Shown piece by piece: positions 29,411 through 51,099 of a stretch of 64,000 nt of DNA (its first letter is position 1; each line of letters opens with the position of its first letter). Both the position numbers and the translations under genes were made by a program. Origin of the DNA: Lingula anatina (Eukaryota > Animalia > Brachiopoda); NCBI GenBank assembly GCA_051362555.1, contig CM120641.1:496001-560000 (forward strand). The letters run 5' to 3'. A model generated the notes under the pieces. It was not told the DNA's origin and made no database searches. It was given only the letters and a program-made list of their open reading frames with translations.

Positions 29411-29467
29411 ATGGGGGACAGAGCCTGCTGCAGGAACTTAGTCTTTGGCATTATTTTGCTAACATTG
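29411..29467 (+). CDS. Start/signal-peptide exon ([19 protein letters not shown])
   Basis: Acceptor tcttgacag at 29384, ATG at 29411, hydrophobic core, donor gtaggt at 29468 (phase 0). Confidence 0.7.
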
Positions 29468-48142: not shown

Positions 48143-51099
48143 TGTATTTTGGCATATCACATACTATATTATGCTTTCCAGTATTTCTAGACCAGCATGA
48201 TGCTAGAACTTTCCTGCATGCACATGCGCGTTCTAAGCGTGCGAACACGGGCTGGCTGGGTACGGAGGAGGTGCTGGCAGGGAACCTGGAGCGCGAGTGC
48301 GTAGAGGAAGTGTGTTCTTGGGAGGAAGCAAATGAAGTCTTTGAGAATGGAGAGAGAACCGTAAGGAGAAGCAGAATTGAGCAAGATGTCCTGATGCAGC
48401 TTATTGCATTTATTAAATTACTATACTATGTTATTTATAATTCGTATTATTTTTCAAGTTAATGGACTTTGGCCCTTTTTTTTTTAAATGAATAGAATAT
48501 GCACTTTAAAGTATTTAGATGAAGATATAAATGAATGTTTTTCCTTCTTTGCTTGCTAGTTTTATTGAACCATTTAACCAATAAACTATGAATTAAACCT
48601 CTTGTATGGACCCATGAGTACAATTCTATACCTTCTGTGTGTATTTATATATGATTAATGAACTTCAAACATGACATGTTTAAAACATTATGGCTATATA
48701 CTAGTAATGAATCTCAAAATCTGATATATCTTGGTACTAAAATTAACCCCCAGTGACTTATCTTTTACCCTATAACTATTTGTACATGTACCAGCTTTTA
48801 TGTTCATATCCTGTCACTGTTTCACAGTTGGTGTGATATTTACCATAAATATCTATTTCAGAGAGAGTACTGGGTAAGGAGAAATGGTATGTAATTTGTT
48901 TTAAATTATTCTTTAATTGGAAATATATTTTTATATGTAATGGAAAAATATAATTTAATTTGGCAATTGTCTGACATTTGACTTTGTTCCATGTTGTGAC
49001 ATATATACATTACGAAATCAGCTGTGATAATTTTTTAAAGATTGGTCCATTTTTATGCCAGATCCTAACCAGTGTGATTCCAACCCGTGTGTCTCAGAGG
49101 GGACCAGCAGATGTGAAGATTTATTCCAAAACTATAGATGTCACTGCAGGCAAGGATACACTGGAAGCAATTGTCACATCAGTGAGTCAGAATGTCCACA
49201 TGCAACTCACATCAGCTGTCATATAGCAGTTTCAAGACATTTATGTACTTATATATAAAATTCCACAATATGGGCCTACCCTTAAGAGTTGAGTTGTTGT
49301 TTTTGTTTTATTAGGAGGAGAGAGGGTGGGGGAGATTATGTATATACTGAGTATTGCAGGAACTCACAAACCCAATCTGAAAAACATTTTTATCTGTTCT
49401 CAGATATAGATGACTGTGGGACAAATTGTCTAAATGGAGCTATATGCACTGTAGGTATACAACTGTATGATATCTTTATTAATCAGAGATTTTGACAACC
49501 CATTTAAAAACCTTATTTATGAAATTGCTTTGTTTATTGTATATGCTGCAAATTAAAAGATTGTGTTTAATATTGTCATTAATGGCATACAACTTTATGT
49601 ATGTCTGTATATTAAAAGCATATATATATATACATGTACAAATAAAACTGACTTTAAAAATGAAAAGAATTCTGCTCACAATCTTACTTTCCAGGACCTG
49701 ATCAATGACTATCACTGCACCTGTGCCCCAGGATTCCGAGGCACTAACTGTGAAATTAACATTAATGAGTGCCAGAGCAACCCTTGTCAAAATGGTGCCA
49801 CGTGTCAGGACGGAGCAAACCGTTGGAGCTGCCAGTGTGCTCCAGGATGGACAGGTTAGTGGTCGTTTTGAATTAGCTTTAATTTCAGACTGCTGCTGTT
49901 ATTTGTTTCAAATTGTTTCTAATATAGATTACATTTACCAAAAAGTGAGGGTATTAACTTGAAGACCCAGTTGGAAGCACAGGAAGCAAAGCTCAAGAAC
50001 GTAATTACACGTTATAATATTTCTCAGTCCCAGTTCATACTTATTAAACAAGTATACTTTTCTATCTGACCAACAGATGAATTCACAGTAACAGTTAATG
50101 GGACAGAAGTCTGTTAGCTAGTCAAATATTTGGGTAAATCCTACCTCCTCCTTCCCAAATTGGAGTAGGGTTGGGGAGCCAGCTTGCAGCATATCCTGGC
50201 CATATACTGGACCCTTAGAGAGGAACAAAATTTACCAAATCTTATCTAGATTACTTAATCTTATGATACATCAACATAGATATATTATATGACAGTGCAA
50301 AGGTATCATTTGAGTACCATCAAACTCTGTGCTTCTGATGACTGTATGCTATCTCAATGTAATTACTATGGTAGTGTGGTGAAAATTTAAGAATTTTGCT
50401 GGCTTTGAAAATTTTGTTAGCAGATGATTTTTCTGCTGAAGATTTTTTTTCACTTTGAAAAATTACCCAAAACTAAAAAAAGAGACTTGCTTATCAGCTT
50501 TAAAATTATTTTTATCAGGTGTATCCTGCCAGTTGGACATCAATGAATGTATGTCGGCACCTTGTCTGAATGGCGGAACATGTAACAATCTGCAGAACAT
50601 GTTTACCTGTGATTGTGTCCAGGGATTTGCAGGGAATGGATGTGAAATTAATGTGGATGATTGTTACCTTGATCATTGCCTGAATGGTATGGCAGTGTTT
50701 TTTAAGTATTGTTTGTCATTCAATATTCCTGAGGACGTTGATATTTATATATTTTTCAATCTCAAGATGTGTTATAATATTTTCCTGGATTTTTTTTCTT
50801 GTTTTAACAAACCACAGACCTTTGTTGGTTTATAAGCTTGGCTTTATAATTTTGCAAAAACACATTTCTTTTCAAGAAAAATTTCCTTATAATATAATCA
50901 GACAAATAAGTTCTTTATCATACTTTTTTCACAGGTGGTACTTGCATTGATTTAGTCAATGACTTCAGCTGTATCTGTCCAGCAGGATTCTCTGGTACGT
51001 CATGTGAAGTCAACGTTAATGAGTGTGAGAGTTCTCCCTGCCTGAACCAAGCTACCTGTATTGATGCTGACAATGGCTTCCTGTGTGAATGTTTACCTG
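29411..51099 (+). CDS. Multi-exon secreted or membrane protein: signal peptide, C2/MNNL-like, DSL, Gla (alternative exons), EGF repeats; 3' end outside the window
   Basis: Exons 29411-29467, 31742-31975, 34274-34565, [46487-46662 or 48182-48360], 48862-48886, 49062-49181, 49404-49450, 49695-49854, 50519-50686, 50935-51099 all have GT-AG ends and compatible phases. The join across 34566-46486 is inferred. Confidence 0.65.
30247..30447. mobile_element. Partial CAGTGGCG-family MITE copy
   Basis: Shares ccatttggtac.gtttagaactatgat and ttttcagaaatc with the 1318 copy; ends ccggcactg. Confidence 0.65.
31742..31975 (+). CDS. Exon with end of signal peptide and C2/MNNL-like region
   Basis: tcttctag acceptor, 78 stop-free codons ([15 protein letters not shown]...CKLDFTHWK), gtataa donor, phase 0-0; the G.GFVEI start and F..W end loosely resemble the N-terminal domain of Notch ligands. 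Confidence 0.65.
34274..34565 (+). CDS. DSL-domain exon
   Basis: ttttcag acceptor; [45 protein letters not shown] matches the six-cysteine DSL pattern; donor gttggt, phase 1. Confidence 0.88.
37122..37853. repeat. Dispersed ~100-bp direct repeat (about 37122-37222 and 37756-37853)
   Basis: aacattgaacaat...gatcaattgagga.aaatgtgacaagatgtttttactgcttttaccctgtat occurs twice. Confidence 0.8.
41844..42017. mobile_element. MITE with ~16-bp subterminal repeats (ccgaaggttca / tgaaccttcgg)
   Basis: GGGG...CCCC ends, inverted subterminal arrays, tttgatcc duplicated on both flanks; second copy at 61136-61293. Confidence 0.85.
43676..46133 (+). mobile_element. Helentron/HINE-like non-autonomous element carrying a satellite array
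   Basis: subTIRs attgtaccaccagc (43678) / gctggtggtacaat (46084), 5' hairpin, GTCC-like microsatellite, 3' stem-loop gaggcg-gtat-cgcctc, ctagtt end. Confidence 0.8.
44660..45940. repeat. ~145-bp tandem satellite, about 9 units
   Basis: aaaactggca recurs at 44674, 44820, 44965, 45095, 45239, 45385, 45530, 45674 and 45820; each unit has a tgaccttgaaattgacctttgacct-like core. Confidence 0.95.
46487..46662 (+). CDS. Propeptide + Gla domain exon A
   Basis: [59 protein letters not shown]; phase-1 acceptor (46486 or 46495), gtgagt donor phase 0. Confidence 0.88.
47743..48100. mobile_element. hAT-like MITE between the two Gla exons
   Basis: 11-bp TIRs cagacatgctg / cagcatgtctg, inserted in a (TG)n tract. 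Confidence 0.6.
48182..48360 (+). CDS. Propeptide + Gla domain exon B
   Basis: [60 protein letters not shown]; tttccag acceptor phase 1, gtaagg donor phase 0. Confidence 0.92.
48862..48886 (+). CDS. 25-nt aromatic-stack microexon (REYWVRRN)
   Basis: tatttcag acceptor, gtatgt donor, phase 0-1; links either Gla exon in frame to the first EGF exon. Confidence 0.85.
49062..49181 (+). CDS. EGF exon 1
   Basis: [44 protein letters not shown], phase 1-1. Confidence 0.92.
49404..49450 (+). CDS. EGF2 first half
   Basis: [16 protein letters not shown]; ttctcag acceptor, gtaggt donor. Confidence 0.88.
49695..49854 (+). CDS. EGF2 second half and EGF3
   Basis: [57 protein letters not shown]. Confidence 0.93.
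50519..50686 (+). CDS. EGF3 end, EGF4, EGF5 start
   Basis: [60 protein letters not shown]. Confidence 0.93.
50935..51099 (+). CDS. EGF5 end and incomplete EGF6
   Basis: [55 protein letters not shown]; tttcacag acceptor, gtaggt donor; sixth Cys missing, so the gene continues. Not in the ORF track. Confidence 0.92.

Follow-up and report, generated by a model that had tools for sequence, protein, structure and literature searches.

A probable Serrate-like gene with an internal propeptide-Gla cassette in the brachiopod Lingula anatina

Exons, reading frames and transcription of the locus

We analyzed a 64,000-nucleotide stretch of the Lingula anatina genome (assembly GCA_051362555.1, contig CM120641.1, positions 496,001 to 560,000; hereafter the window), in which a DSL domain of the Notch-ligand type is followed by vitamin-K-type propeptide-Gla exons and EGF repeats. 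The window is animal genomic DNA with introns and a GC content of 33–42%. Reading of the 28.5–64 kb region and translation of its candidate exons gave eleven plus-strand coding exons with AG/GT ends, which encode in order a signal peptide, a C2-like region, a DSL domain, two propeptide-Gla exons (GlaA and GlaB), a short aromatic exon and six EGF repeats (Table 1). This confirmed the plus-strand exons with splice ends that the initial annotation had placed here; its count of at least six EGF repeats also held, the sixth being incomplete, and its aromatic microexon was refined to 25 nucleotides in phase 0 to 1. Pfam matched DSL (PF01414, 26.6 bits, cut-off 24.2), Gla (PF00594, 48.2 bits for GlaA and 52.7 bits for GlaB, cut-off 27) and EGF (above cut-off in all four EGF exons scanned) as predicted, whereas the MNNL domain predicted along with them was not matched in the C2-like exon.

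Table 1. Coding exons of the DSL-Gla locus, in window coordinates.
Feature	Position	Strand	Remarks
Signal-peptide coding exon	29411..29467	+	acceptor 29385; phase-0 donor after 29467, joins acceptor 31742; aligns with the signal peptides of both Tubulanus homologues (P0029, P0111)
C2 (MNNL-type), N-terminal half	31742..31975	+	alternative acceptor 31752; fold from homologue model; stranded RNA reads in bin
C2 C-terminal part and DSL	34274..34565	+	phase 0 to 1; Pfam DSL; PDB Jagged1/Serrate matches; RNA reads
GlaA: propeptide (F-x5-A-x3-L), RHKR, Gla with 11 Glu	46487..46662	+	phase 1 to 0; RNA reads
GlaB: propeptide (F-x5-A-x3-L), RSKR, Gla with 11 Glu	48182..48360	+	phase 1 to 0
Aromatic-stack exon, 25 nucleotides, contains YW	48862..48886	+	phase 0 to 1; matches YW..R..DP of both Tubulanus proteins
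EGF1, Gas6/protein S type	49062..49181	+	phase 1 to 1
EGF2, first part	49404..49450	+	translated exon, spliced model
EGF2 end and most of EGF3	49695..49854	+	Pfam, spliced model
EGF3 end, EGF4, EGF5 start	50519..50686	+	Pfam, spliced model
EGF5 end and most of EGF6	50935..51099	+	Pfam; phase-1 donor

Scripted joins kept the frame open for all three partners that had been proposed for the DSL exon, giving 482 amino acids for DSL-GlaA-aromatic-EGF1, 483 for DSL-GlaB-aromatic-EGF1 and 415 for DSL joined directly to EGF1, and the Gla-aromatic cassette is a symmetric phase 1-1 unit. Each Gla exon is accordingly an in-frame option behind DSL, as had been stated, but the two exclude each other by frame. 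The direct GlaA-GlaB join causes a frameshift that ends the protein at residue 255. Between the two exons, 21 candidate phase 0-to-1 microexons were listed, all without an aromatic YW/FW motif, so that GlaA and GlaB are mutually exclusive alternative exons, or GlaA is a terminal exon. Read-through of the GlaA donor meets a stop after two codons, and ATTAAA lies at 46794. A repeat search around the Gla exons revealed no convincing docking/selector pairing. The signal exon has a weaker alternative phase-1 donor after 29471 (0.2 versus 2.7 for the phase-0 donor on a crude matrix), whose direct join to a Gla exon is in frame and gives 308 amino acids. This splice-site matrix gave true exons scores that were too low, and small exons are not excludable with it.

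A strong phase-1 donor, GTAGGT, follows the last EGF exon, and an EGF profile found no further EGF exon downstream of 51099 within the window; the gene probably continues past 64 kb. No AATAAA or ATTAAA occurs within 900 bases of this donor. Read-through of the donor (51099–51108) meets a stop after two codons, and intron retention would yield a secreted form.

The initial annotation had noticed neither a signal exon belonging to the Gla part nor another EGF exon behind DSL, and both observations were upheld. A scan for an ATG, a hydrophobic stretch and a phase-1 donor gave no candidate for a hidden signal exon in 34566–46480 while recovering the true signal exon as a control, and no EGF exon was found in the 11.9 kb between DSL and GlaA. 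A scan under other thresholds listed two weak signal-exon candidates in 34566–46480; it missed the control exon (wrong donor list or phase).

Raw RNA reads of four of the nine listed runs (X1, X4, X5, and X7) were mapped on 31201–47400. The stranded runs X4 and X5 gave reads in the C2, DSL and GlaA bins at about 0.8–5 reads per exon base, in the orientation fitting plus-strand RNA, and the intron bins adjoining C2 and DSL were empty or nearly empty. Across the four runs, reads fell on the DSL exon in two, with a trace in a third, and in the GlaA bin in all. C2, DSL and GlaA are thus expressed at a low level. Reads were also present in three of the four runs in the 540-base bin 46861–47400 past GlaA, where no known exon lies; they could represent the 3' untranslated region of a short secreted C2-DSL-GlaA form. 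A few plus-strand-oriented reads were seen at 39301–40380 (X4 and X7), inside the DSL-Gla intron, where no coding exon was recognizable. The same intron holds a repeat element at 43600–46150 made of tandem units of about 140 bases, copies of which elsewhere are strongly and strand-specifically transcribed (depth up to ~1,200 at 90–99% identity).

Homologues in Tubulanus polymorphus and the two modules

When 1.84 billion representatives were scanned by HMMER with the DSL exon, 92 proteins matched, only one of which carries Gla behind DSL. This is XP_074663134.1 (LOC141915481; here P0029), a 292-residue protein of the palaeonemertean Tubulanus polymorphus that RefSeq calls "uncharacterized", with a signal peptide, a C2-like region, DSL (129–174), propeptide, RVKR, Gla (209–247), EYW and one EGF. 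A Gla profile was then built from GlaA, GlaB and P0029, excluding P0003 and P0011, which resemble vertebrate Gas6-type fragments. Applied to proteins of lengths 512–2000, it gave 364 matches, of which 120 were listed. The top match, and the only DSL-bearing protein among these 120, is XP_074663092.1 (LOC141915457; here P0111), again "uncharacterized" and from T. polymorphus, with 1571 residues. It begins with a signal peptide, a C2-like region, DSL (117–162), propeptide, RVKR, Gla (194–231) and an aromatic segment. Its DSL scores 23.7 bits, just under the Pfam cut-off of 24.2, so that architecture searches can miss it.

The later part of P0111 consists of 23 EGF matches, a cysteine-rich segment, a juxtamembrane domain, a transmembrane helix at ~1418–1437 and a cytoplasmic tail. 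Pfam found no VWC match in this protein; the cysteine-rich segment presumably resembles VWC. The Pfam JAG1 match is weak (15.9 bits, E 0.015, below the cut-off of 27), the juxtamembrane stretch has no significant sequence match in PDB, and its predicted fold is ferredoxin-like at low confidence, the type of fold described for the JAG1 family. The JAG1 match and the modeled fold fit a Serrate/Jagged origin without proving it.

The spliced window model aligns with P0111 at 39% identity over 482 columns (E 4e-103), collinear through every module, and with P0029 at 33% over 299 columns (E 5e-45), collinear from the signal peptide to the EGF; the DSL exon taken by itself shares 47% identity with P0029 over 53 residues. 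DSL and propeptide are joined by a short natural linker in both Tubulanus models. The proposed DSL+Gla architecture was hence found in the same order in two further gene models, neither of them characterized in RefSeq. Together with the motifs kept in all four Gla copies, they bear out the proposal that a single gene encodes DSL and Gla in a single chain, and the DSL-Gla architecture itself is very probably real.

Other searches gave the modules separately. A word-based search with the DSL exon returned no match from 31 candidates, and one with GlaB returned 11 matches, none with DSL. The 16 Gla-bearing metagenome loci contained no convincing DSL (one 12-bit match lies over an EGF in L006). 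In the ESM Atlas, GlaA led to Gla-only clusters and P0029 to Delta-like ones, and no DSL+Gla cluster of at least 50 members was shown. Among the marine metagenome open reading frames (ORFs), L009:339-1547, L014:23-1285, L006:449-1402 and L013:251-1750 encode signal-propeptide-Gla followed by EGF or other cysteine-rich repeats without DSL, and in L008 and L015 Gla is followed by a short cysteine-rich domain. Many relatives of the DSL exon (P0012–P0103) have several DSL-like repeats in tandem (a motif count gives as many as 9), in a large and mostly unannotated expansion.

All four Gla copies (GlaA, GlaB, P0029, and P0111) contain F-x5-A-x3-L and R-x-K-R with 11–13 Glu each, which substantiates the propeptide and furin-type site (RHKR/RSKR) read earlier in the window. 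The module shows the features of a vitamin-K-dependent Gla domain, namely a Glu cluster, a Cys loop, an aromatic stack and a propeptide with a basic cleavage site. The vertebrate propeptide consensus places F/A/L at −16/−10/−6, as given in an excerpt of PMC5578492. In the window model and both homologues, the propeptide-Gla unit is internal, behind C2-DSL, and not N-terminal behind the signal peptide. For EGF1, 39 of the 40 best matches are EGFs directly following a Gla domain; 37 of these come from Gas6/protein S-type proteins (the searched set being rich in Gas6), and no match to EGF_DL_JAG or JAG1-like_EGF2 was obtained at E ≤ 1. The atypical EGF1-2 (DOS-type) do not lie directly behind DSL, where the propeptide-Gla unit is found instead. 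Because EGF1 is of the Gas6/protein S type, a Gla-EGF cassette seems to have taken the place that the first EGFs usually occupy in a Serrate-like gene. A Gla tree of 25 rows grouped GlaB with the two Tubulanus proteins (90/72) and left GlaA unplaced.

The C2 assignment of the head is inferred from the predicted fold of the homologue. The C2 exon of the window gave no significant BLAST match to the homologue when used alone and aligns to P0029 only within the full-length alignment. An AlphaFold model of P0029, made from a 6-row alignment without any Delta/Jagged sequence, shows an eight-strand sandwich at residues 28–129 with a predicted local distance difference test score (pLDDT) of ~55–75; its Gla part, with pLDDT under 50, was excluded from use. 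The top Foldseek matches of this model are Jagged1, DLL4, Jagged2, Serrate and Delta (E 1e-5 to 6e-4). VIA-align ranked the Serrate C2-DSL first (Z 8.2, root-mean-square deviation 7.3, 149 aligned), followed within ~2 Z units almost entirely by C2 domains, and Delta-like clusters with an MNNL domain align to the ESM Atlas model of P0029 at TM scores of 0.43–0.49. The C2 half of the original C2/MNNL-like label is supported by the predicted fold of the homologue, and its MNNL half is left without a Pfam match in the window exon.

The DSL exon matches Jagged1/Serrate in PDB and keeps the six cysteines. The Notch-binding face of Jagged1 comprises F199/R201/R203/F207 (PMC3415683, in part), and F207A abolishes Notch binding (PMC3888931, in part). 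Alignment to Jagged1 places Y/R/Q/E at these positions in the window, so that one of the four, R201, is kept, and the Tubulanus proteins keep none of R201/R203/F207. Judged from these residues, the Notch-binding face of this DSL is degenerate, and the link to Notch signalling drawn in the initial annotation is weakened. Many other lophotrochozoan DSL matches diverge in the Notch-binding loop as well; the usual G-H/R/Y ending occurs in 44 of 80 loops.

Proposed maturation and competing explanations

In vertebrate Gla proteins, GGCX binds the propeptide in the endoplasmic reticulum and furin cuts in the late Golgi; once its N-terminus is free, the Gla domain can fold around Ca2+ and bind anionic lipid. 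On balance, we lean toward a Serrate/Jagged-like gene with an internal Gla cassette, whose product would be carboxylated and furin-cut to act as a Gas6-like, phosphatidylserine-binding lipid sensor or adhesion stalk. A cassette of phase 1-1, consisting of propeptide-Gla, the aromatic segment and EGF1, appears to have entered the intron behind the DSL of a Serrate-like gene. GGCX would dock on the internal propeptide and gamma-carboxylate the Glu cluster; cleavage by furin at R-x-K-R would then free the N-terminus needed for the Gla fold. Of the two products of this cut, the C2-DSL head would be soluble, and the remaining Gla-EGF stalk is predicted to bind phosphatidylserine in a manner dependent on calcium and vitamin K. 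The cysteines of the window model number 4 in C2 and 6 in DSL, both even, which gives no indication of a disulphide bond holding the two parts together after the cut. Judging from P0111, the gene is expected to encode further EGF repeats beyond the window, then a Jagged-like juxtamembrane domain and a transmembrane helix, and the stalk would be membrane-anchored if the gene ends like P0111. The shed head may modulate Notch weakly or bind another partner, and GlaA and GlaB may serve as two alternative Gla heads, or GlaA may end a short secreted form. Since the cut DSL head would lose its anchor and its Notch face is degenerate, the product probably acts more as a Gas6-like phosphatidylserine sensor or adhesion stalk tethered to the membrane than as a Notch ligand activating in trans.

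Several observations weigh against this scheme. The propeptide motif lies 3–8 residues further from the cut than −16/−10/−6 across the four copies (3–5 residues in the window Gla exons), that is, at −19 to −24 versus the vertebrate −16. A single origin of the four Gla copies was recovered in 36% of bootstrap trees, which neither establishes nor refutes it. The homologues are two predicted gene models of a single species, and the Jagged-like C-terminal end is known only from one of these, P0111. Within 31201–47400, no DSL-Gla junction read was displayed at this low depth, the junction tables being filled by poly-G and transposon-like repeats. In X1 and X7, finally, the DSL exon gave 0.0 and 0.1 against 0.4 and 2.7 for the GlaA bin, a handful of reads; a separate Gla transcript could give this pattern too.

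Such a transcript would arise if the signal exon were spliced either to C2-DSL or, through its phase-1 donor, straight to GlaA or GlaB, making an ordinary signal-propeptide-Gla-EGF protein from the second choice. The in-frame 308-residue join, the DSL-less proteins of this layout in L009 and L014, and the GlaA reads without DSL reads in X1 and X7 all speak for it; we nevertheless regard it as improbable, with the phase-1 donor being the weaker one on the crude matrix and DSL running into the propeptide in both Tubulanus models. It is more doubtful still that two neighboring genes, a secreted C2-DSL gene and a Gla-EGF gene, were wrongly fused by prediction here and in Tubulanus. The 11.9-kb gap between DSL and GlaA, the lack of displayed junction reads at low depth and the predicted nature of the homologues would fit two genes. 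Against them stand the failure to find a signal exon for Gla, the phase-1 donor of the DSL exon, which fits the Gla acceptor, and the recurrence of the same fusion with a short natural linker in two paralogous models; two Tubulanus paralogues and the window locus would all have to be mis-fused alike.

Within a single gene, skipping of the Gla and aromatic exons could produce a plain C2-DSL-EGF Notch ligand, and their inclusion the Gla form, with Notch signalling as the main output. This splice swap, proposed in the initial annotation, is compatible with the in-frame DSL-EGF1 join and the symmetric phase 1-1 cassette, and GlaA and GlaB already require alternative exon choice. We consider it unlikely, as no junction read was displayed for it in the same low-depth data, Gla is included in both Tubulanus models, the skipped form would still start with a Gas6-type EGF1 rather than the atypical EGF1-2 of Jagged/Delta, and the Notch-binding face is degenerate. 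A chain that stays uncut or is partly cut has a marginally poorer chance in our estimate. Its propeptide would only dock the carboxylase, and the internal Gla would be a second Ca2+/lipid module tuning C2-DSL presentation; the linker from the carboxylase motif to the basic site is indeed longer than in vertebrates, and lipid binding by the C2 head tunes Notch activation (PMC3888931, in part). The retention of R-x-K-R and a canonical Gla start in all four copies argues instead for selection for cleavage. Gla folding, moreover, normally requires a free N-terminus.

A broader reading is a vitamin K and furin switch, in which the uncut or Gla-skipped product would be a Notch ligand or antagonist, and carboxylation and cleavage would yield a shed, diffusible C2-DSL signal plus a phosphatidylserine-sensing membrane stalk with two alternative Gla heads, in a lophotrochozoan Serrate-derived family. 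We hold this reading to be rather doubtful. If true, Notch-type signalling would be linked with vitamin K status and with the detection of damaged or dying cells, and the invertebrate gamma-carboxylase would gain a Gla-domain substrate in a protostome.

Relation to known systems and other features of the window

The gene and its homologues share a signal peptide, a predicted C2-type fold, a six-cysteine DSL and an EGF array with Serrate/Jagged and Delta (C2/MNNL-DSL-EGFn-[VWC]-transmembrane), and P0111 also shares with Serrate/Jagged a cysteine-rich segment, a juxtamembrane domain of putative ferredoxin-like fold with weak JAG1 similarity, and a transmembrane helix. In those ligands DSL is normally followed by the atypical EGF1-2; the window gene instead has a furin-type site within a propeptide-Gla-aromatic-EGF cassette at this place, has lost most of the F199/R201/R203/F207 face, and gave no Pfam match to MNNL. 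The propeptide motif, R-x-K-R, the ERECxEExC core of Gla, the aromatic stack and EGF1 are those of Gas6/protein S and the Gla-EGF clotting factors, and the exon phases 1-0, 0-1 (25 nucleotides) and 1-1 are ones we take to match vertebrate factor IX. In contrast to these proteins, the propeptide is internal, behind a folded C2-DSL head, the homologues have neither LamG nor a protease domain, and the EGF stalk is probably membrane-tethered. By sequence, the product thus departs from canonical DSL ligands in two respects (the binding face and the atypical EGF1-2) and from classical Gla proteins in one (the N-terminal position).

The domain order and conserved motifs are identical in T. polymorphus LOC141915481 and LOC141915457, each of which has one Gla in place of the two alternative Gla exons of the window. 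As in invertebrate chordate Gla proteins (the Ciona Gla-RTK P0203, and Oikopleura according to part of PMC9643190), Gla occurs here outside blood clotting, and as in the ORFs of L009 and L014 it is followed by EGF repeats; those proteins, however, lack a C2-DSL head and have the propeptide directly behind the signal peptide.

The initial annotation knew of no described DSL+Gla architecture, and our searches agreed with this. RefSeq has the architecture in two uncharacterized models, and no text joining Gla with DSL, Jagged or lophotrochozoans was found in the main texts of roughly 8.4 million open-access papers searched. A 2006 PNAS paper reportedly presented four Ciona Gla proteins, some likened to developmental proteins. 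The consulted part of a coagulation-domain study has no mention of DSL or Notch (PMC9643190), and a lophotrochozoan Notch-ligand survey, likewise consulted in part, included no nemertean and discarded unexpected architectures (PMC8166818), so that DSL-Gla proteins could have been missed there. An earlier description of a related architecture seems unlikely to us. The hybrid that two known modules form here is real and conserved, and it is apparently undescribed beyond its two uncharacterized RefSeq models.

In clotting factors, Gas6 and PRRG proteins, the Gla domain is known as an N-terminal module; in the present gene it lies inside a Notch-ligand chassis, an arrangement conserved in a protostome. 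GGCX and VKOR are present in invertebrates for an unclear purpose, and fly GGCX knockouts have no apparent defect, according to the same excerpt of PMC5578492. The DSL-Gla family offers a concrete candidate substrate for the invertebrate carboxylase, and it tests whether GGCX works from a propeptide placed behind folded domains. It also indicates a mobile propeptide-Gla-aromatic-EGF cassette of Gas6 type outside chordates, a point relevant to the origin of clotting-factor architecture.

Further features were read elsewhere in the window. Three tandem, near-identical EF-hand ORFs of ~178 amino acids (Pfam EF-hand) lie on the minus strand at 52390–52923, 55576–56109 and 62916–63452. They are probably nested in an intron of the DSL-Gla gene on the opposite strand, and we assume that they resemble sarcoplasmic calcium-binding or luciferin-binding proteins. 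A single-exon ORF of 376 amino acids at 13202–14329 on the minus strand encodes a rhodopsin-family G-protein-coupled receptor (Pfam 7tm_1, Srw), presumably of the peptide-receptor-like kind expanded in lophotrochozoans. A Tc1/mariner transposase remnant in two frames occupies 3032–4023 (HTH_Tnp_Tc3_2, DDE_3).

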